This document shows positions 2,157 through 19,898 of a stretch of DNA of 64,000 bases, one piece after another; the first letter of the stretch is position 1; each line of letters begins with the position of its first letter. The notes under the pieces are model-generated. The model ran no database searches. It worked only from the letters and a program-made list of their open reading frames with translations, and was not told where the DNA came from. This stretch comes from a virus (lineage: Duplodnaviria > Heunggongvirae > Uroviricota > Caudoviricetes), in the IMG/VR virus record IMGVR_UViG_2693429668_000006. One strand, 5' to 3'. The position numbers and the translations under genes are program-made.

Positions 2157-2543
2157 ATGTCTGATAACAAGATTGAATTTATAGAAAGTCGCTACGCTGC
2201 TTTTATCGCAGGGTTGATTGAATCCTCACCTATGAGCCAGGCCCAGATAGCCAAAACAATTGGGTATAAAAACGCCAACAACCTTTCTTTAATTAAAAGC
2301 GGCAAAATTCCTTTGCCTATCGATAAGGTTCGTCCGCTGGCGCTGGCACTGGGCATTGAGCCAAGTCGTCTTATGATGATGGTGCTGGAAGAACGCCAAC
2401 CCGAACTCGCAGCATTTTTATACAAAGAAGGCACTGCTCCTCTTAACGAGGACGAAAAACAGGTTCTTGCTGCATATAACGAGCGATTCGGTAAAGAGAA
2501 AGGCGCATCACAAAAGGTTGTTGAGGCCATAAAGTCTCTATGA
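2157..2543 (+). CDS. HTH XRE-family transcriptional regulator
   Basis: Helix-turn-helix-like segment SQAQIAKTIGYKNANNLSLIKSG; divergent from integrase. Confidence 0.55.
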   Translation: MSDNKIEFIESRYAAFIAGLIESSPMSQAQIAKTIGYKNANNLSLIKSGKIPLPIDKVRPLALALGIEPSRLMMMVLEERQPELAAFLYKEGTAPLNEDEKQVLAAYNERFGKEKGASQKVVEAIKSL

Positions 2544-3641
2544 AAAATTTACACGAATAAGCTCTGTTGATAGACGATCTCCCTTAAATTTGTGGTCAAT
2601 TTCGTCTAAATCCGGTTGCTCTACGATTGATGCGATGTACGTCGAGAAACTTTCTAAGGCGTCTCGCATCTCGTCCATATAATCGTGCCGGTCGTAGACC
2701 CGATCTATCCCCTCAAGACTGTGGTTCATGATTTTACGTGATACCTCCTGGCTTATGCCTAATGCTGGGAAGTAACTACGCGCAGTACGGCGCAAATCTC
2801 GGGGTGTAAATGGCTCAAGCTCCATCAGTTCTGGTCGTTCCAGAATACGACGTAATGCCTGGGCTATTGCCACTTTAGACATAGGAAGGTCTTTCCCGAT
2901 TTTTTTATTCGAAGGCACGAGCCACTGGCTGTCTTTACCATATTCGAACAACTCTTCAATACAAGTGCGCATTAATGAGCTTAAAGGCAGAGAATGCTCA
3001 CGGGCAGATTTGTTCCTCTTGCCTTGATTCCAAACCCCACGCTTAAGATTGAACTCACTTTTTTTAGCCCGCAGTACTTCGTCAGGTCGTCTTGCGGATA
3101 CAAGACATAGCCTGGCCGCCCATTTTGTACCAGCGCACACATTGAAGTAGTCCCATATATTCCAGAACACCCATACCTCTGCGTCGGTCAGCTTCCGCTC
3201 GCGAGGTGTGGGCTTTGCGCCACCGGCAACTTTGTTAAGTGACATATCGTTTAACGGTGACACGTCTATCATCCCCTGGAAGGCGCACCAGCTAAGGAAC
3301 TGCTTCATCAGAGAGAAAACGCGGCGGCCCATAACAATTTTGCCATCCAGTATTAGTGGGTTGACCAGTTGGTTCACCATGAACCTATTAATGTCACTTA
3401 CTTTTACATCGGCAATGTGCGGCAAAACATGTATCAAAATACAATGAACAGCGATCTCTGGCCGACGTCTGGTTATCAGCAGAGATAAGCGAGTGAATAA
3501 CATGAATGCGTCCGAGAATCTCATGTCATTGCTGACCTGGGAGATCATAACGGCCTGCATTTGAGATGCTCTTTCGAGATACTCTATCGCCTCTTTTGAG
3601 GTGTTCTCCGCAGCGCGTGCTCTGTCAAAGCTATTTTTCAT
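2538..3641 (-). CDS. tyrosine recombinase / phage integrase
   Basis: C-terminal region RDLRRTARSY...HSLEGIDRVYDRHDY resembles tyrosine recombinase catalytic region; true start may be an internal Met. Confidence 0.7.
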   Translation of the reverse strand: MKNSFDRARAAENTSKEAIEYLERASQMQAVMISQVSNDMRFSDAFMLFTRLSLLITRRRPEIAVHCILIHVLPHIADVKVSDINRFMVNQLVNPLILDGKIVMGRRVFSLMKQFLSWCAFQGMIDVSPLNDMSLNKVAGGAKPTPRERKLTDAEVWVFWNIWDYFNVCAGTKWAARLCLVSARRPDEVLRAKKSEFNLKRGVWNQGKRNKSAREHSLPLSSLMRTCIEELFEYGKDSQWLVPSNKKIGKDLPMSKVAIAQALRRILERPELMELEPFTPRDLRRTARSYFPALGISQEVSRKIMNHSLEGIDRVYDRHDYMDEMRDALESFSTYIASIVEQPDLDEIDHKFKGDRLSTELIRVNFS

Positions 3642-3851
3642 ATGACAATCACCGAGTTACGCCGATGCACTGTATAAGTAAACAGTATATTAGGCATAGA
3701 TTCTTATAGGATCAAGAGTAAAAGTAACTCATTTTCAGCAATGATTCCATACATAGTAGGTATGGAATCATTTAGCCGTTGTTTTTTGAATTTTAAGGGA
3801 ACCAAGCGTGAGTTTGGTGGGAACAAAAACGGCTCCTGTGAGCCGTTAAAA

Positions 3852-4097
3852 TTAGAGAGTGGTGACGTATGCAGCCAGTTCTGTGTATCCGCCAATCGGT
3901 TGGCCATCGATCAGTACCTGGGGGATAGTCTCTACCGGTTTGCCAACAATTTCGCTAAGTTTTTCCTTATCGATACCGGCAGTGGTGATGTCGATGTACT
4001 CATAATCACCATAGCCGTGTCCCTTTAGTTGTTTCGCCAGCTCGACCGCACGTTTGCAATATGAGCAGTTATCTCGTCCGTAGATAACGATAGTCAT
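3852..4097 (-). CDS. glutaredoxin
   Basis: 81 aa, CSYC active-site motif near N-terminus, overall similarity to Grx1-type sequence; SD GAGGT before ATG. Confidence 0.7.
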   Translation of the reverse strand: MTIVIYGRDNCSYCKRAVELAKQLKGHGYGDYEYIDITTAGIDKEKLSEIVGKPVETIPQVLIDGQPIGGYTELAAYVTTL

Positions 4098-4236
4098 GTT
4101 TACCTCATAATAATTATGTGTTACTTAACCAGAAAATAAATATTACTATAAAAGATAGGTAAGTAAAAACCTATTTAATGTCTGCAATACATCGTAAACT
4201 TGCCTGTTAATCACAACTTAATTTAGTTAATATTTA

Positions 4237-5565
4237 ATGCAACTAACAATGGTAAGTACGAGAGCATACATGCCTGTTTTTATTTCTGTTGCAATTCTAA
4301 TGTTTTCCATAATAATTTTGTTTTTAGGTTTACTACTTGAGCCATTTCAAGATTGGAAGGTTACAGACCAAATTGCTGTATTGAGTAGTTTTATAACGAC
4401 AGCGGCTTTTTGTGCAACAGCGTGGAACGCCTATGAAGCAAGAAAAAGTGCAAAGGCAGCACTGGAGGCCGTTAGGATAACTACCGATTCATTGATTGAG
4501 ATGAGAAAAAATTCTTTCAAAGAATGGTTTGACACTTTATTAAATCAGCATGATGAGTTGTACAATAATGTCATACCAATCATTGAACAGACAAAAAAAC
4601 AATTTAATAAAAATGAAATGCATTCGTTTTTTTATCCATTGGTAAGAAAGCATGAGGTTATTCAGTACATAAAACATATTACCAATATATTAGTCTATGT
4701 AGATAACCGATTTTACATAGATGGAAATTGTTTTGATGAAAAAATGGAATATATTATTCAATTGAGTGGAAAAATACCACCGCAAATGAAGTTGGTTATT
4801 GCAGTTTTTGGATTGGACATCGATTCTCGTGAACCGCTGGATTCAAAAAAACTGTATGCTTTATTAAATAAATATGATTTTTTCAAAGATGAAATATTCT
4901 TTGATGATGCTTATTCAAGCATGCCTGAAGTAGAGCTATTTATAAAGGATAGATTTGATAAAATATTTAAAACCAAGATGTTAAAATACTTTTGGAACGT
5001 GATTAAGGAATATTATTCTCAAGTTGAAGTCAAAGAAATCTGGGTGGTTCGTCGTCCGCAAGTTGCTTCATCGGTATTAATGAACTACCAAACACCATTA
5101 TCTGGTTTAATTGATGATTATTTTAAAAATTTGCCAAATGAGGTAAAGAGCATTTTTGATGAAGCACTAAAAAAAGCTAATGATAGTGTTACGTCTATTG
5201 ATGACTATATTCATCGTTTGATCGGTTGCAGAGTCGCGTCGATTTCAGAGCATGTCCATTTCGAAAGTGAAATACTGAGTAGTGAAAAGGATGTGAAGGA
5301 TATGATTAAAAATTACATAGAGCAAAGAAAAACTGGAAAAAATGCGGTAAATCTTGGGCAGTTATATTTCTCGAGTGAGTCAGATGTAATTACAGGTGAT
5401 CAGTTGAGTGATGCGATCGATGAATATGAGAAAAAGTTGGCACTTATGGCAATAAACGATAATGATGATAGTGATAACCTATTGTGCCATATCTATATTA
5501 AATCATGTGAGATAGTTGATGAATATAAGCGTGAAACATTAAAATTGGGCGAGTACGCACAATAG
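4237..5565 (+). CDS. hypothetical membrane protein (two N-terminal TM helices, about 380 aa cytoplasmic domain), AT-rich
   Basis: Long ORF in strongly AT-rich DNA; hydrophobic segments PVFISVAILMFSIIILFLGLLL and IAVLSSFITTAAFCATAW. Confidence 0.55.
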   Translation: MQLTMVSTRAYMPVFISVAILMFSIIILFLGLLLEPFQDWKVTDQIAVLSSFITTAAFCATAWNAYEARKSAKAALEAVRITTDSLIEMRKNSFKEWFDTLLNQHDELYNNVIPIIEQTKKQFNKNEMHSFFYPLVRKHEVIQYIKHITNILVYVDNRFYIDGNCFDEKMEYIIQLSGKIPPQMKLVIAVFGLDIDSREPLDSKKLYALLNKYDFFKDEIFFDDAYSSMPEVELFIKDRFDKIFKTKMLKYFWNVIKEYYSQVEVKEIWVVRRPQVASSVLMNYQTPLSGLIDDYFKNLPNEVKSIFDEALKKANDSVTSIDDYIHRLIGCRVASISEHVHFESEILSSEKDVKDMIKNYIEQRKTGKNAVNLGQLYFSSESDVITGDQLSDAIDEYEKKLALMAINDNDDSDNLLCHIYIKSCEIVDEYKRETLKLGEYAQ

Positions 5566-5816
5566 GTTGTGCAGATTCGAAGCCTCTTTAAATTTTGCGC
5601 TGAAAATTGTTATTTTACGGTAAGTAACGCTGTTTTCAGCGCATAAATGTCAGTGAATAATTTGATGCTTGCTGTAACGATGGTACGCTACGTAAAATCC
5701 GATATTTATGAGACTGATTGCAGGTAAGGACTTACATAGCGCACAAAAATTGCTGATACCAGATGCAATATATGTTTAATGTCAAATTTTAGATAGGGGC
5801 GTATACGCCCCTGTCA

Positions 5817-6371
5817 TTATTTTATTTTATCTTCTTCTAAACGAGAAAATTTAAATTGTTTATCGGTGATGGTGAGTAGTGTTACACCTTCCTTTTCGTG
5901 TAAAAGACCGGCACCGTTTGACACCATAATCAATCTATCCTTCCCTCGAAAGATTTCATAATATTTACCAGCTCCACAAGTTTTAGTTTCAATACAGTCC
6001 ATGCCAGATACTGCTTCTCTGTTAAAAACACGATCTTTTGTAGCAACGGGTTTTCCGTACTCCTTTGTCAGCATTTCACTTATCTGGATGAATGTATACT
6101 TACCAACATTACTGGTTAATGACATTTCGACTTTTCCGTCGATCAGGTTGCCATTCGTATGCGGTTCTTTTTCAGTCGGACTATTTTTATCTTGAAGAAT
6201 AAACACTTCAACATTTTGTGTTAGCTTCTTGAATTGGGCTTTATAATTTTGTTCAAGTTCACTTTTATCTTTGCCTATTAACGTTAATTCATCTATTTCA
6301 GATTCGTTACACCCTGTTAGTGTTAACGCAATTATTAGAGATGCGAAAATATTGAGATGGCACTTCTTCAT
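5817..6371 (-). CDS. lipoprotein (signal peptide with lipobox LTGC)
   Basis: N-terminus MKKCHLNIFASLIIALTLTGC; AT-rich; hairpin 5795..5812 just past stop. Confidence 0.55.
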   Translation of the reverse strand: MKKCHLNIFASLIIALTLTGCNESEIDELTLIGKDKSELEQNYKAQFKKLTQNVEVFILQDKNSPTEKEPHTNGNLIDGKVEMSLTSNVGKYTFIQISEMLTKEYGKPVATKDRVFNREAVSGMDCIETKTCGAGKYYEIFRGKDRLIMVSNGAGLLHEKEGVTLLTITDKQFKFSRLEEDKIK

Positions 6372-6490: not shown

Positions 6491-6515
6491 AAAGGGGCCG
6501 AAGCCCCTTTGAATT
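6491..6515 (-). terminator. rho-independent terminator downstream of tRNA cluster
   Basis: Hairpin GGGGCCGAAGCCCC (6494..6507) followed on minus strand by TTTTTTGATTT. Confidence 0.5.
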
Positions 6516-6584
6516 TTGCGCTGAAAAAAGTGTTGCTAGGATGTTAGCAAGCTATGGTTAAGAACGTCTGCCGTAATTGTCTAT

Positions 6585-6662
6585 CACAGCGTTGAGCGGT
6601 CTGGTTTATGTTAGCGGAGTCTTAATCTGGTTGATTAAAAGGCCAAACCGCTCAACGCTGTG
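6585..6662. repeat. long inverted repeat (16 bp perfect arms, 46 nt loop) flanking tRNA cluster
   Basis: Arms CACAGCGTTGAGCGGT (6585..6600) and ACCGCTCAACGCTGTG (6647..6662). Confidence 0.6.
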
Positions 6663-6664
6663 TC

Positions 6665-6751
6665 TGGCGGAGAGTAATGGAATCGAACCATCATCGTTTG
6701 CACAATGGGACGGTTTTCAAGACCGCTTGAGCACCATGCTCCCTACTCTCC
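6665..6751 (-). tRNA. tRNA-Ser-like (anticodon UGA), type II, 87 nt
   Basis: Acceptor GGAGAGT/ACTCTCC, anticodon loop CTTGAAA, T-loop TTCGATT, 3' GCCA; hand-folded, D-arm not fully resolved. Confidence 0.5.
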
Positions 6752-7045
6752 AATTGTGTTGTGTGCTCCGTTTCGTGGAGCTAACGGCGGGTGATCAGAC
6801 CGCACCAGGTTGGACGTATTTCAGCGTTATGCTGTTGCAAGAGAGCCAAATTGTGATGGCCGGTGCTGATCTCCGGCATTGCCTACGTTAGCGGCCTTCA
6901 GGCAGTTCATCCGCTTGCTTCTACGTCGCACATCAGCCTGTGCATTCACCACAATGTTGAGAACACTGGTTGTCACGCTGCAACGCAACATTATATTCAT
7001 AAATTGGGATATGAACCCGTTACGCCAATGTTCTCAATATTATGT

Positions 7046-7121
7046 TGGTGCCGGTTAACGGACTTGAACCGCTGGCCATTTGCTTACAAAGCGACTGCTC
7101 TACCAACTGAGCTAAACCGGC
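7046..7121 (-). tRNA. tRNA-like, possibly tRNA-Thr (UGU), with imperfect anticodon stem (possible pseudo-tRNA)
   Basis: Good acceptor (GCCGGTT/AACCGGC), D-arm and T-arm, 3' ACCA, but anticodon stem GTCGC/GCAAA pairs at only 3 of 5 positions. Confidence 0.4.
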
Positions 7122-7125
7122 AATT

Positions 7126-7212
7126 TGGTGGGGAGTGATGGAGTCGAACCACCCGAGTCGCAATGACAGTAGATTTACAGTCTACACCGCTACCTCTACG
7201 GACTAACTCCCC
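7126..7212 (-). tRNA. tRNA-Tyr (anticodon GUA), type II, 87 nt
   Basis: Acceptor GGGGAGT/ACTCCCC, anticodon stem-loop GTAGA-CTGTAAA-TCTAC, long variable arm, T-loop TTCGACT, 3' ACCA; differs from host tyrT. Confidence 0.6.
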
Positions 7213-7217
7213 TAAAT

Positions 7218-7292
7218 TGGCGATGGTGGGTGGATTCGAACCACCGATCAGTTGGTTAACAGCCAACTGCTCTACCGCTGAGCTACACCATC
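7218..7292 (-). tRNA. tRNA-Asn (anticodon GUU), 75 nt
   Basis: Canonical cloverleaf: acceptor GATGGTG/CACCATC, D-arm GCTC-AGCGGTA-GAGC, anticodon stem-loop GTTGG-CTGTTAA-CCAAC, T-arm GGTGG-TTCGAAT-CCACC, 3' GCCA; sequence differs from host tRNA-Asn. Confidence 0.75.
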
Positions 7293-17112: not shown

Positions 17113-18819
17113 TTAATGATTGAGTATTTTATTAACACGCAGCTTATTAAGTGTTGATTTTGAAGCAACTTCCTCCAAAGCTTCTATTGCTTTATCAGTG
17201 ATGCTCTTCTGTTCGTCTGTCGGGTGTTGCATACCCTTGAACTTGAGCATAGTCTCTTCTACTAAATTCAAAGCATCCTGATCACAGGATAATATCCAGT
17301 TTACGTAATCATCTTTAGAAAAACTGTTAAGAATATTCACATCACTATGGTTAAATCTTCCACCAGCTATTTTTTTTATAATTTTATCTAAGTTATAGTC
17401 ATCTGGATTTCTATCTTTCAATTTTTTTTCAATTCTGAAACCTAATTCTTCATTTCCGAAGATCTCTACTCGCAAAGAATTAAATGTAGCATACGCATTG
17501 TCTTTATTAACAAAAGCATCTGCATATGCCTCTATAATATTATTACAATCTCTATCCAATTTGATTAGGACATTTATTAAACCTACGAACTGTCCAATTG
17601 GTATACGCAACAGACTATCGTTAATTACGCGCTCAATTTGAAAAATAAACTCTGATTCATTATCTTTAAAAGAGTTTCTAAAAACATCCCAAATTTTATA
17701 AACCTCACATAAAACCCTATTATCTCTATATTGTTCATTTTTTTCTTTTATTATATTTAGAATATTGCTTTCAGAAGACACATAACCGTTCTTAAGGTAA
17801 AAATCTATATCATCATCGAAAGCACTTTCTGCTCGTTCATAAATAATATCAAGGCTATTAACAAATGAATATACAGAGTTAACTTCTTCCTTTTCATCTT
17901 TATCATCTAACATATAGTCGAATGCATGTATATTTTTGATTGACTCCTTAAATGAAGCATAATCAACGCTAGGAACACCAAAATAGTAAACCACTGAAAA
18001 TAAGACCAATCTATTAATAAAACTTTCTCTAACCTTATCCTCTGCTAACTTTAGCACATCTCTAAATATAACTAGAGATGATTTTATTTTATTTAATATT
18101 CTAATGTTTTTGATGTTTAAATCATTTGCTAGGTTTTTTAACAAAAGAAAATCAGGGTCAGTCTCATAAAAAACTTTTCTTAAGTTTTTCTCAGGCGTGG
18201 GATCGTATTTTATTTCCACATCAATTATTTTTTCTCTATACTCTAAAAACTGTTGTTGTGCAGTTTCTTCATGTAAGTTATCTTCATTTAATATTAGAAC
18301 AACCTTGCAATTTTTTCTTCTTGCCAACTCATCAATTACCCCCATAATCTCTTTAATTTCTAGCGCACTACCTTTTCGTTCAATATCATCAATGCAAACC
18401 AAATAATTATTAACAAATTTATACTCAAGAGATGACAGCAGATTATCAGTTTTGAACCCAAAAAAATCGTTCTTTCCAAAATGTATTAAAAATTTTGACA
18501 AGGAGTTGTATTTCAACCATCCCCAAAACCCATTTCTATAACGAATCATAGTTCGATCCGTTTCAGATAAAATCAGTTCTTTATATTTCTTTTCATTAAT
18601 TGGTGTGGCACAATGATAAAGAGCTTTTTTAATGTCTCCAATAGAATTTATTCCAAACAAAGAAACATATGAATATGCATTAAAATCTAATTTTTTAGAA
18701 TGTTTAGTATAAAAGCTATTCCAATAATGCGTTTTACCTACTCCCCAATTTCCTTTTATGACAGCAACCCGATGATCTGAGTCCAAAAAATTTTTTAAAA
18801 ATACTTCTATCGATTCCAT
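17113..18819 (-). CDS. KAP-family P-loop NTPase (candidate defence or abortive-infection protein)
   Basis: N-terminal Walker A KGNWGVGKTHYW matches KAP signature GxWGxGK[ST]; 568 aa; strongly AT-rich relative to neighbours. Confidence 0.55.
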   Translation of the reverse strand: MESIEVFLKNFLDSDHRVAVIKGNWGVGKTHYWNSFYTKHSKKLDFNAYSYVSLFGINSIGDIKKALYHCATPINEKKYKELILSETDRTMIRYRNGFWGWLKYNSLSKFLIHFGKNDFFGFKTDNLLSSLEYKFVNNYLVCIDDIERKGSALEIKEIMGVIDELARRKNCKVVLILNEDNLHEETAQQQFLEYREKIIDVEIKYDPTPEKNLRKVFYETDPDFLLLKNLANDLNIKNIRILNKIKSSLVIFRDVLKLAEDKVRESFINRLVLFSVVYYFGVPSVDYASFKESIKNIHAFDYMLDDKDEKEEVNSVYSFVNSLDIIYERAESAFDDDIDFYLKNGYVSSESNILNIIKEKNEQYRDNRVLCEVYKIWDVFRNSFKDNESEFIFQIERVINDSLLRIPIGQFVGLINVLIKLDRDCNNIIEAYADAFVNKDNAYATFNSLRVEIFGNEELGFRIEKKLKDRNPDDYNLDKIIKKIAGGRFNHSDVNILNSFSKDDYVNWILSCDQDALNLVEETMLKFKGMQHPTDEQKSITDKAIEALEEVASKSTLNKLRVNKILNH

Positions 18820-18870: not shown

Positions 18871-19230
18871 TCACCCTTTCTTCATCAACTCGCGTTTAAT
18901 TTCATCGGTACGCATCGTGACATCGGCAGCTGTGATCGCCTCGTTAAGTTTCACGATGTCCTCGATTTCCTGCGGTGTCTTCTCCGCAAGATGGAAAATA
19001 GCAGCACGAATCACGTCAGAACGAGTGAACTTCTCGAAGCGAGGGATGAACTTCATCATCTCCAGCAGTTCGAAGTATTCGTCCTCCAGTGACATTGTGC
19101 GGCTTTTAATTTTCTCTTTGCCACGAGTCGGGCGTCCCTGTGGTCTGACTGGTTGGCGCAAAGGAGTTGTGTTCTTAGCCGGTGCATCAGGCTCTTTGCG
19201 CTTTGCTAGGTCACCCATTTTCATGGACAT
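18871..19230 (-). CDS. small partition protein (ParG-like ribbon-helix-helix centromere-binding protein)
   Basis: 119 aa, immediately downstream of ParA with overlapping start/stop; RHH-like C-terminal segment. Confidence 0.45.
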   Translation of the reverse strand: MSMKMGDLAKRKEPDAPAKNTTPLRQPVRPQGRPTRGKEKIKSRTMSLEDEYFELLEMMKFIPRFEKFTRSDVIRAAIFHLAEKTPQEIEDIVKLNEAITAADVTMRTDEIKRELMKKG

Positions 19231-19898
19231 TATTCTTCTTCCTCCAGACTCAACAGATAATCTACAAATTCTTCAAACTCGGCTTCCGCCTTTTTGTCGC
19301 GCTCGCTACCGGTCATTTCAAAGATAGAACGACCAGACTCTTCCGCATCATCATAGACGTTGCGGTTATATAGATTGACTGGCGCAGACTCGATGCCAAA
19401 CGTCTCAACAATCTCTTTAGCCGCCAGAATGCGAGACACTTGTGATGGCAAAGCCGGGCACTGGTTCATGACCGCGCGGACCTTCACTTTATCGTTTACA
19501 TTACGAACATTGTCGATAATAGGATCGATGTCACGCAGAGATTTCAAATCACGACGCTTAGGACGAAGCGGGATAATGATAACGTCGGCCATCAGCATCG
19601 CTTGTCGCTGAATTTCGGAGTCAAAGCCACCAGCATCTACCACTACAAACTCAGCTCTACCCTGAAGCGATTTTAGGTGCTTAATGATGTCATCCTGAAC
19701 GTATGCAAAAGGAATCAGCTCAAGGTCTTCGTTCTGTCGACGGTCTTCACACCAGCTTGTTGTCGTGCGCTGAATATCTATATCAGTGATATAAACCTTC
19801 TTCTTCTTTTTGACTTTCAGGCAAACGGCAATTTGCTGGGCAACGGTGGATTTGCCAGGCCCGCCCTTTGTGCCGCCAACCACAAAGATCTTGGTCAT
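19230..19898 (-). CDS. ParA-family partition ATPase
   Basis: Deviant Walker A VVGGTKGGPGKST at N-terminus; 222 aa. Confidence 0.75.
   Translation of the reverse strand: MTKIFVVGGTKGGPGKSTVAQQIAVCLKVKKKKKVYITDIDIQRTTTSWCEDRRQNEDLELIPFAYVQDDIIKHLKSLQGRAEFVVVDAGGFDSEIQRQAMLMADVIIIPLRPKRRDLKSLRDIDPIIDNVRNVNDKVKVRAVMNQCPALPSQVSRILAAKEIVETFGIESAPVNLYNRNVYDDAEESGRSIFEMTGSERDKKAEAEFEEFVDYLLSLEEEE

Follow-up and report, generated by a model that had tools for sequence, protein, structure and literature searches.

Abortive infection (Abi) proteins of Lactococcus lactis include AbiC and AbiP, which have been grouped as 'AbiC/P': AbiC has two transmembrane (TM) helices and AbiP one, and their predicted extramembrane folds superpose over 93 residues at 0.91 A (PMC13064643). 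The reported phenotype of AbiC is a lowered production of the major capsid protein, and AbiP supplies a working model, that of a sensor which a phage structural protein, a major tail protein, sets off (PMC13064643). Here we analyse the gene of a 431-amino acid (aa) protein encoded in a stretch of 64,000 nucleotides (nt) of Caudoviricetes DNA, IMG/VR record IMGVR_UViG_2693429668_000006 (the whole stretch is called the window below, and this product the window protein). The window protein is probably a divergent, unannotated member of the single-gene, membrane-anchored AbiC/AbiP-type proteins, and does not represent a new category of system. The element that carries its gene is one that we take, in agreement with the literature, to belong to the SSU5/pHCM2 group of phage-plasmids. 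The gene and the parts of its product are listed here; residues are numbered from Met12 of a longer open reading frame (ORF), and adding 11 converts them to the numbering of that 442-aa ORF.

4098..4269, no strand: AT-rich divergent intergenic region 5' of the Abi-like gene, in which GAGAG at 4260-4264 resembles a Shine-Dalgarno sequence (sequence reading)
4270..5565, + strand: gene for the 431-aa AbiC/AbiP-like membrane-anchored protein, very probably of the putAbiC superfamily (ORF, RefSeq start, phrog_18168, homologues)
4273..4338, + strand: TM1, residues 2-23, strongly hydrophobic (Kyte-Doolittle; Hessa sum -4.8 kcal/mol; AlphaFold2 helix 2-21)
4369..4554, + strand: second hydrophobic helix (TM2, residues 34-55) and juxtamembrane helix (residues 56-95) with the signature ATAWNAYEARKSAKAA (conservation, AlphaFold2)
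4645..4899, + strand: putAbiC core, residues 126-210, the sole stretch alignable to lactococcal AbiC, to PF16872 and to the PADLOC AbiC and AbiP models
4900..5562, + strand: hypervariable all-alpha C-terminal half, residues 211-431 (identity; ratio of nonsynonymous to synonymous substitution rates, dN/dS; isoelectric point, pI, of 4.85; predicted local distance difference test, pLDDT, mostly 70-95)

Homologues of the window protein form a graded series: 420-aa proteins at 55% identity, 432-438-aa proteins at 31-34%, and a Citrobacter protein (P0008) retrieved at 28% identity and E 1.6e-21 with a single-sequence query. P0008 scores 28 bits against PF16872 (putAbiC, 'putative phage abortive infection protein'; a model of 80 positions with a gathering threshold of 22 bits), and the relatives P0007 and P0006 score 22.0, equal to the cutoff, and 18. 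The model matches these relatives at residues ~128-212. An iterated profile search collected 22 proteins, seven of them PF16872-positive. When eight alleles from the genomic slot occupied by the window gene were compared by hhalign with six PF16872-positive proteins, the match (99.95%, E 4.5e-38) extended over 387 columns, residues 26-431; the homology is therefore full-length and not a mere motif. An exhaustive library search returned 696 family representatives at E<=1e-3. The family includes at least 83 Enterobacterales clusters, almost all of which are PF16872-positive and bear the name 'putative phage abortive infection protein', in the genera Pectobacterium, Serratia, Yersinia, Klebsiella, Enterobacter, Salmonella, Pantoea, Erwinia, Providencia and Proteus. 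Judged by this transitive full-length homology, there is little doubt that the window protein belongs to the putAbiC superfamily.

The PF16872-positive Enterobacterales proteins (~430 aa; for example P0008 from Citrobacter and P0021 from Pectobacterium) resemble the window protein in length, N-terminal hairpin and core. They also have in common with it the juxtamembrane signature W-x-A-x-EA(R/K)KSAKAA and the position of their genes as single-gene cargo on mobile elements; however, they are only 17-28% identical to it. In contrast to these relatives, the window protein and its nearest alleles score too low for the PF16872 and PADLOC cutoffs, which accounts for their RefSeq name 'hypothetical protein'; together they make up a separate sub-clade, associated with the grxA slot in phage-plasmids of the SSU5 type. 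The only strong PHROG match, phrog_18168 (E 2.5e-204), is unannotated. The best matches in the direct scans, DUF1796 (E 0.07) and MG319/MPN454 (E 0.005, far below cutoff), were treated as noise. The Abi_C/HEPN RNases (AbiJ, SadR) proved to be a collision of names, the window protein having no Pfam match to an Abi_C domain with the HEPN R-x(4-6)-H motif; the Abi_C paper (PMC13590631) treats an unrelated HEPN domain. A phmmer search against PDB sequences returned nothing better than E>0.02, and the window protein has no informative structural neighbours, its all-alpha domain being without a solved structural relative; the same is reported of AbiC, which likewise lacks informative structural neighbours (PMC13064643).

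As a lactococcal reference we used AbiC from plasmid p275A, a named AbiC carrier in the literature (L017:19554-20570), which the PADLOC AbiC model matches over its full length at 4.3e-133. A profile of 49 family members aligned with this protein at 70.5% (E 3.9e-5) over 60 columns, pairing residues 130-189 with AbiC 192-251. Lactococcal AbiC matches the PADLOC AbiP model at only 3.4e-5, so AbiC is separated from the enterobacterial clade by about the same distance as from AbiP. In the core region the PADLOC AbiC model matches 14 of the 49 relatives; the AbiP model (223 positions) matches seven of the 49, together with several short relatives, over ~170 positions. Lactococcal AbiC (Prf; on pTN20, with a homologue on p275A) has two N-terminal membrane helices and a helical domain, as does the window protein, is also single-gene, plasmid-borne, AT-rich cargo, and appears to have the putAbiC core of ~60 residues in common with it. 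In contrast, AbiC measures 338-344 aa, shows no detectable similarity outside the core, and comes from a Gram-positive host, whereas the window gene resides in an E. coli phage-plasmid. AbiP of L. lactis, a membrane-anchored single-gene Abi protein, also has its layout in common with the window protein; AbiP is, however, much shorter, and it binds RNA and single-stranded DNA non-specifically, whereas the window protein has an acidic soluble part. The present family includes variants with one helix and variants with two, mirroring AbiP and AbiC: the relative P0018 is without TM1, and a stop codon lies directly 5' of its start.

An AlphaFold2 model built from 18 sequences (mean pLDDT 79.9; predicted template modelling score, pTM, 0.67) is almost wholly alpha-helical. 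It places a helix at residues 2-21, a short loop and a 79-residue helix at 31-109, which form an N-terminal hairpin, before a helical domain in which short strands occur only near residues 321-375. The parts of the protein are conserved to very different degrees. The sequence of TM1 is poorly kept (4-40% identity across the family), and the helix is missing in some relatives. Conservation across the family is highest in the TM2/juxtamembrane block, which coincides with the peak of identity at the DNA level (4392-4481): in relatives that are 8-20% identical elsewhere, the loop and TM2 (residues 26-55) are 30-70% identical and the juxtamembrane helix 50-75%. The columns T43, A46, F47, A49, W52, A54, E56, A57, S60, A61, A67, L75, E77, F83 and L90 are invariant in the 18 sequences. 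Conservation of the putAbiC core is intermediate, and residues 211-431 retain 45-57% identity to the closest alleles and 8-24% to distant relatives. The C-terminal half is acidic in the window allele, and the soluble part as a whole has a pI of 5.24, compared with 8.4-9.2 in several relatives. The loop contains one K/R and three D/E, and residues 67-100 of the 442-aa ORF, after TM2, contain seven K/R; by the positive-inside rule the large domain, ~375 of the 431 residues, is probably cytoplasmic, as a preliminary description of this locus had proposed.

We estimated dN/dS by NG86 (own script) for six 420-aa sister alleles. The overall values were 0.28-0.34. For the juxtamembrane helix dN was ~0 at a dS of 0.09-0.25, and for the C-terminal half dN/dS was 0.36-0.44 in diverged pairs. 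These values indicate purifying selection, under which one helix hardly changes and constraint on the C-terminus is loose. A recombinant mosaic, in which a shared N-terminal module is joined to swapped C-termini, was considered and rejected: there is no clean breakpoint, and the identity peak at 4392-4481 is the invariant motif.

The second body of evidence is the position of the gene, in a variable slot between grxA and the tRNA operon. The surrounding features are these:

2538-3641, - strand: tyrosine recombinase (integrase), neighbour of the Abi-like gene
3852..4097, - strand: grxA-family glutaredoxin gene, left edge of the variable slot and conserved backbone (PF00462, 42.7 bits)
5578..5606, no strand: left 29-nt direct repeat, which is a degenerate version of the junction in the backbone beside the tRNA-operon terminator (repeat search)
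5792..5815, no strand: intrinsic terminator, strong and bidirectional, where the Abi-like gene and the convergent lipoprotein gene meet (10-bp stem with seven GC pairs, then a T-run)
5817..6371, - strand: gene for a 184-aa lipoprotein with lipobox LTGC, predicted to be in the outer membrane (phrog_15156)
6491..6527, no strand: right slot edge, composed of the tRNA-operon terminator (6510-6491, - strand) and the right 29-nt repeat (6499-6527) (terminator scan, repeat search)
6665-7292, - strand: four tRNAs (tRNA-Ser/Thr/Tyr/Asn), neighbours of the Abi-like gene

The integrase, the divergent glutaredoxin gene and the tRNA cluster thus lie where the preliminary description had put them. The grxA DNA is 93-96% identical in other SSU5-type plasmids; identity collapses from ~4100-4130 and is back at 96-100% from ~6487, with flanks overall 93-100% identical across SSU5-type plasmids. 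The intergenic region 4098..4269 is part of the variable cassette (55-65% identity to other alleles). Besides the window allele, the slot holds a 420-aa allele (L003), 432-aa and 438-aa alleles (L006, L007) and an allele from E. fergusonii (L023). At least five divergent family alleles occupy one slot, at 31-55% identity within near-identical backbones.

Other plasmids carry different genes at this position. In L004 the slot contains a 262-aa protein (L004:2236-3024, - strand; NZ_CP024264 and about a dozen other plasmids) together with the lipoprotein gene. The N-terminal ~125 residues of this protein match PADLOC PDC-M68A (5.9e-25), endonuclease effectors of cyclic oligonucleotide-based antiphage signalling systems (CBASS) and Shedu SduA; by these matches it is an unannotated nuclease-type defence candidate. 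An unrelated, soluble 302-aa protein (L022:973-1881, + strand; NZ_CP124493) has no match in PADLOC and contains RHTIVH, which fits the HEPN R-x4-H pattern. In some plasmids a small Gp49-family gene is present alone. The 3.1-kb stretch from the integrase end to tRNA-Ser contains an extra ~1.3-kb 'mobile element protein' in MF554642.1 (50321-54745), a plasmid otherwise 100% identical to the window over the matched stretch, which indicates that insertion sequences also target the slot region; ISKox3 is found at the grxA-tRNA locus in NZ_CP061531.

The composition of the gene is foreign as well. The ORF has a GC content of 32.6% (29.6% at third codon positions, GC3), compared with 45.6% for the whole window and 47-48% (GC3 ~51%) for the integrase, grxA and ligase genes, and this points to accessory cargo. 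The AT-richness that had been reported for this gene is thus real; it is not, however, the most AT-rich stretch of the window, since ~2% of equal-sized segments are lower in GC, all of them at ~17.4-18.7 kb (28% GC). The locus resembles the moron and defence hotspots of P2 and P4 in having a fixed slot between backbone genes, rapid cargo swapping and sharp identity edges; it differs in its platform, here an SSU5-type phage-plasmid, and in its location, between grxA and the tRNA-operon terminator. From these comparisons the grxA-tRNA slot appears to behave as a defence hotspot, with the Abi-like gene as swappable cargo.

Relatives in other genera were found in comparable positions. The gene for P0008 belongs to a P2-like prophage and sits between its genes for tail-fibre assembly and the sheath, presumably the Z/fun moron slot of P2. 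Hotspots of P2 in general have been documented (PMC13586616). P0021 adjoins an N6-methyltransferase/Eco57I-like gene on a relaxase-bearing island. At mutS, the gene for P0063 comes right after an integrase and a PIN-domain gene, with HsdM close by; P0047 is in a cargo gap of an integrative and conjugative element (ICE), beside an FRG-domain gene; P0018 is on an IncFII plasmid and adjoins ParE. The context of P0020 is uninformative. Among the contexts compared we found no common neighbour, no co-varying gene and no conserved partner, which fits a single-gene system. The Citrobacter P2-like prophage with a putAbiC relative also carries a TIR-domain gene (PF10137 CAP12-PCTIR_TIR; L009/L010:4653-5477, - strand). 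This gene is a second moron in the prophage, on the opposite strand, between a gpS-like tail-completion gene and a gpV-like baseplate gene.

Going only by its AT-richness and position, the preliminary description had read the gene as superinfection-exclusion or abortive-infection cargo of the kind that temperate phages carry next to their integrases. Three independent lines of computational evidence support the cargo reading: the remote full-length homology to the Enterobacterales PF16872 proteins; the sharply bounded variable slot, whose occupants are divergent alleles or a nuclease-like PADLOC defence match; and the cargo positions of relatives on mobile elements in other genera. No homology to a housekeeping membrane protein was found, and the family is conserved in related elements. 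The setting needs correction in one respect, as the element is a phage-plasmid and not an integrating temperate phage. On balance, we consider it probable that the window gene has an Abi-type anti-phage function and is a candidate for an AbiC/AbiP-like, single-protein, membrane-anchored system.

Several results weigh against this interpretation. Direct Pfam, NCBIfam and PADLOC scans of the window protein assigned it to no significant family; PF16872 does not match it even at E<=1, and no PADLOC model, those for AbiC and AbiP included, matches the protein itself. The earlier statement that the protein contains no recognisable motifs therefore stands for direct scans, and falls for profile methods, which recover the remote putAbiC core. 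With the narrow profile of slot alleles, lactococcal AbiC goes undetected (0.2%), nor can the invariant ATAWNAYEARKSAKAA helix be made out in that protein; the weak relationship to AbiC and AbiP is carried by ~60 residues and by intermediates. Two N-terminal TM helices had been proposed; both are present and form the hairpin of the AlphaFold2 model, but TM2, rich in small residues and highly conserved, is only marginally hydrophobic (Hessa sum +3.3 kcal/mol). The calculated acidity of the soluble part does not favour non-specific binding of nucleic acids as in AbiP. Positive selection across the C-terminal half as a region is unsupported at dN/dS values of 0.36-0.44. In the literature we found no published phenotype for any member of the enterobacterial clade, and in a recent screen (PMC11381338) no resistance was conferred by an AbiC-like protein of lactococci that has 38% identity to AbiC.

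If the Abi-type interpretation is correct, the protein would act as accessory cargo of an SSU5-type phage-plasmid that protects the plasmid-carrying population from other phages. The N-terminal hairpin would anchor it in the inner membrane and leave the large domain on the cytoplasmic side. By analogy with AbiP, the hypervariable C-terminal half may sense a phage-made protein, probably a late structural one. Sensing would switch the invariant TM2/juxtamembrane helix and the putAbiC core to an active state, probably via oligomerisation in the membrane, and this state would halt phage development before progeny are released. The block might be exerted by membrane disturbance or, along the lines reported for AbiP and AbiC, by interference with the transcripts of the phage or with production of its late proteins. 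This particular division into sensor and effector, drawn from the analogy, is tentative. A further proposal is a long shot: that the ATAWNAYEARKSAKAA helix is an undescribed Gram-negative membrane effector module joined to a fast-evolving cytoplasmic sensor, and that the slot alleles reflect an arms race over which phages are excluded. If it were true, the excluded competitors would possibly include rival phage-plasmids. It would also imply a hidden layer of defence in a group that DefenseFinder and PADLOC score as nearly defence-free; a recent, large DefenseFinder survey reported few defence systems in the SSU5-type phage-plasmids (10.1101/2025.09.12.675607).

Superinfection exclusion would account for some of the same observations. 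The membrane protein would then block DNA entry, or an early membrane step, of incoming phages (possibly SSU5-type) and would do so without cell death. A moron-like position with its own terminator, a membrane anchor and a membrane-proximal helix that is the most conserved part of the protein are all compatible with this, and the many divergent alleles in near-identical competing elements fit discrimination among related phages. However, detectable homology is to Abi-type proteins only; PHROGs, Pfam and PADLOC gave no match of the window protein to known exclusion proteins; and the large predicted cytoplasmic portion is better suited to intracellular sensing than to a block at the envelope. 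We regard exclusion as unlikely.

The gene might also serve the element itself, through lysis timing, membrane tethering of replication or partition, or as an addiction-type toxin. It lies in the early/replication region, near the recombinase, a repressor-like helix-turn-helix gene, the ligase gene and the tRNAs; membrane proteins with long helical stalks are known from lysis and tethering systems, and one relative adjoins a ParE toxin gene on an IncF plasmid. Yet the gene is dispensable, as many SSU5-type plasmids with 93-100% identical flanks are without it or carry unrelated genes in its place. Relatives occur in elements as unrelated as a P2 prophage, an ICE and chromosomal islands, no conserved antitoxin-like partner accompanies them, and the foreign GC content marks accessory cargo; we think a function of this kind improbable. 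AT-rich foreign genes are often silenced in E. coli, no phenotype for the clade was found in the literature, and the gene is rare (gene or DNA-level relatives in 56 of 5426 complete E. coli genomes, on plasmids in all cases, and the exact window allele in five), all of which would suit a host-fitness membrane protein unrelated to phages (envelope stress, niche adaptation) or a decaying, functionless hitchhiker, but intact frames of constant length that persist across 31-55% identity, a dN/dS of ~0.3 with an invariant helix, repeated association with defence-type neighbours and hotspots, and the Abi-family homology make this just as improbable.

That the Abi-like gene is real is not in question. 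The 442-aa ORF of the preliminary description was confirmed on the + strand at 4237..5565. At the local composition the probability of a stop is 0.085 per codon, and that of 442 open codons ~8.5e-18; when 4101-5800 was shuffled 500 times no open stretch exceeded 149 codons, compared with 444 observed. The stop-free length is thus far above expectation and the ORF is not a chance one, and homologues of the same length are known at 31-55% identity. The likely start is Met12 (ATG at 4270, preceded by the GAGAG), which gives 431 aa; the near-identical RefSeq copy WP_229436823 (99.5%) starts at the third ATG, equivalent to Met12 of the window ORF. A simple sigma-70 scan of the + strand of 4098..4269 found no site of >=9/12 and no convincing promoter 5' of the gene.

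The convergent lipoprotein gene is bracketed by the two 29-nt repeats, 5578-5606 and 6499-6527, which are identical at 27 of 29 positions and spaced 921 nt apart. The gene has its own promoter-like site (6481-6454) and its own terminator. It is found without the Abi-like gene in L004 and L005, and it is absent beside the Abi-like gene in L003, L006 and L007; the 5578-5606 element also occurs 3' of the stop codon in other alleles. We considered the lipoprotein as a functional partner and ruled this out by the independent distribution, repeats, promoter and terminator of its gene. The gene's own repeats, promoter-like site and independent distribution identify it as a separate nested insertion, probably a moron. 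An exclusion role like that of the lipoproteins Cor or Llp is conceivable for its product but unsupported, the sole match of this kind being a signal-peptide-level one to Cor (E 0.04).

The window matches non-mobilizable E. coli plasmids of ~108-113 kb at ~100% identity (MF554642, NZ_AP025215, NZ_CP083480), and its flanks match phages Cyrano and CMS-2020a. The element encodes CobT, an AAA ATPase, DNA polymerase III alpha, a ligase, DnaB and tail genes. By tblastn, a member of the family is present in 139 plasmid records: Escherichia 72, Klebsiella 37, Enterobacter 18, Salmonella 6, Pantoea 3, Citrobacter 2 and uncultured bacterium 1. The same search with the window protein against 50,697 phage records gave no match, so deposited SSU5-like phages such as Cyrano are without the gene.

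We noted several other features of this region. A second variable position lies between the recombinase gene and grxA; it is vacant in the window, contains a YafO toxin-antitoxin pair in some plasmids (L005:1716-2744, - strand; NZ_CP017847), and contains a 184-aa gene in phage Cyrano (L001:4310-4864, + strand). Between the same two genes, at 3740-3772, there is a near-perfect 16+16-nt palindrome (AATGATTCCATACATA / TAGGTATGGAATCATT) that is kept in all related plasmids examined and could be a binding site of the recombinase or a repressor, or a terminator. A 20-nt inverted repeat (6585-6662; 95% complementary, 38-nt spacer) lies directly downstream of tRNA-Ser (- strand) in conserved backbone. 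An Rfam scan found tRNAs only. The most AT-rich island of the window (~28% GC) holds the gene for a 568-aa KAP-family P-loop NTPase (GNWGVGKTH; 17113-18819, - strand), with 26 bits to PF07693 (cutoff 20) and a match to the PADLOC candidate PDC-S49 (E 2.1e-21). This gene adjoins that of a ParA/MipZ-like partition ATPase (19230-19898) and probably serves this phage-plasmid as a second defence cargo.

Phage-plasmids of the SSU5/pHCM2 type are common in clinical E. coli, Shigella, Salmonella and Klebsiella, and an AbiC/AbiP-like family that is present on ~139 plasmid records has been overlooked by current annotation pipelines. Should the protein prove inactive, this would be a caution against inferring 'abortive infection' from the PF16872 name alone. 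If it is active, the AbiC/AbiP group would extend from lactococci to Gram-negative bacteria, for which far richer genetics and phage panels are available, and the alleles, at 31-55% identity in isogenic backbones, would constitute a natural series for mapping the specificity of the sensor. Activity would also bear on phage therapy cocktails and on the spread of phage-plasmids in these pathogens.

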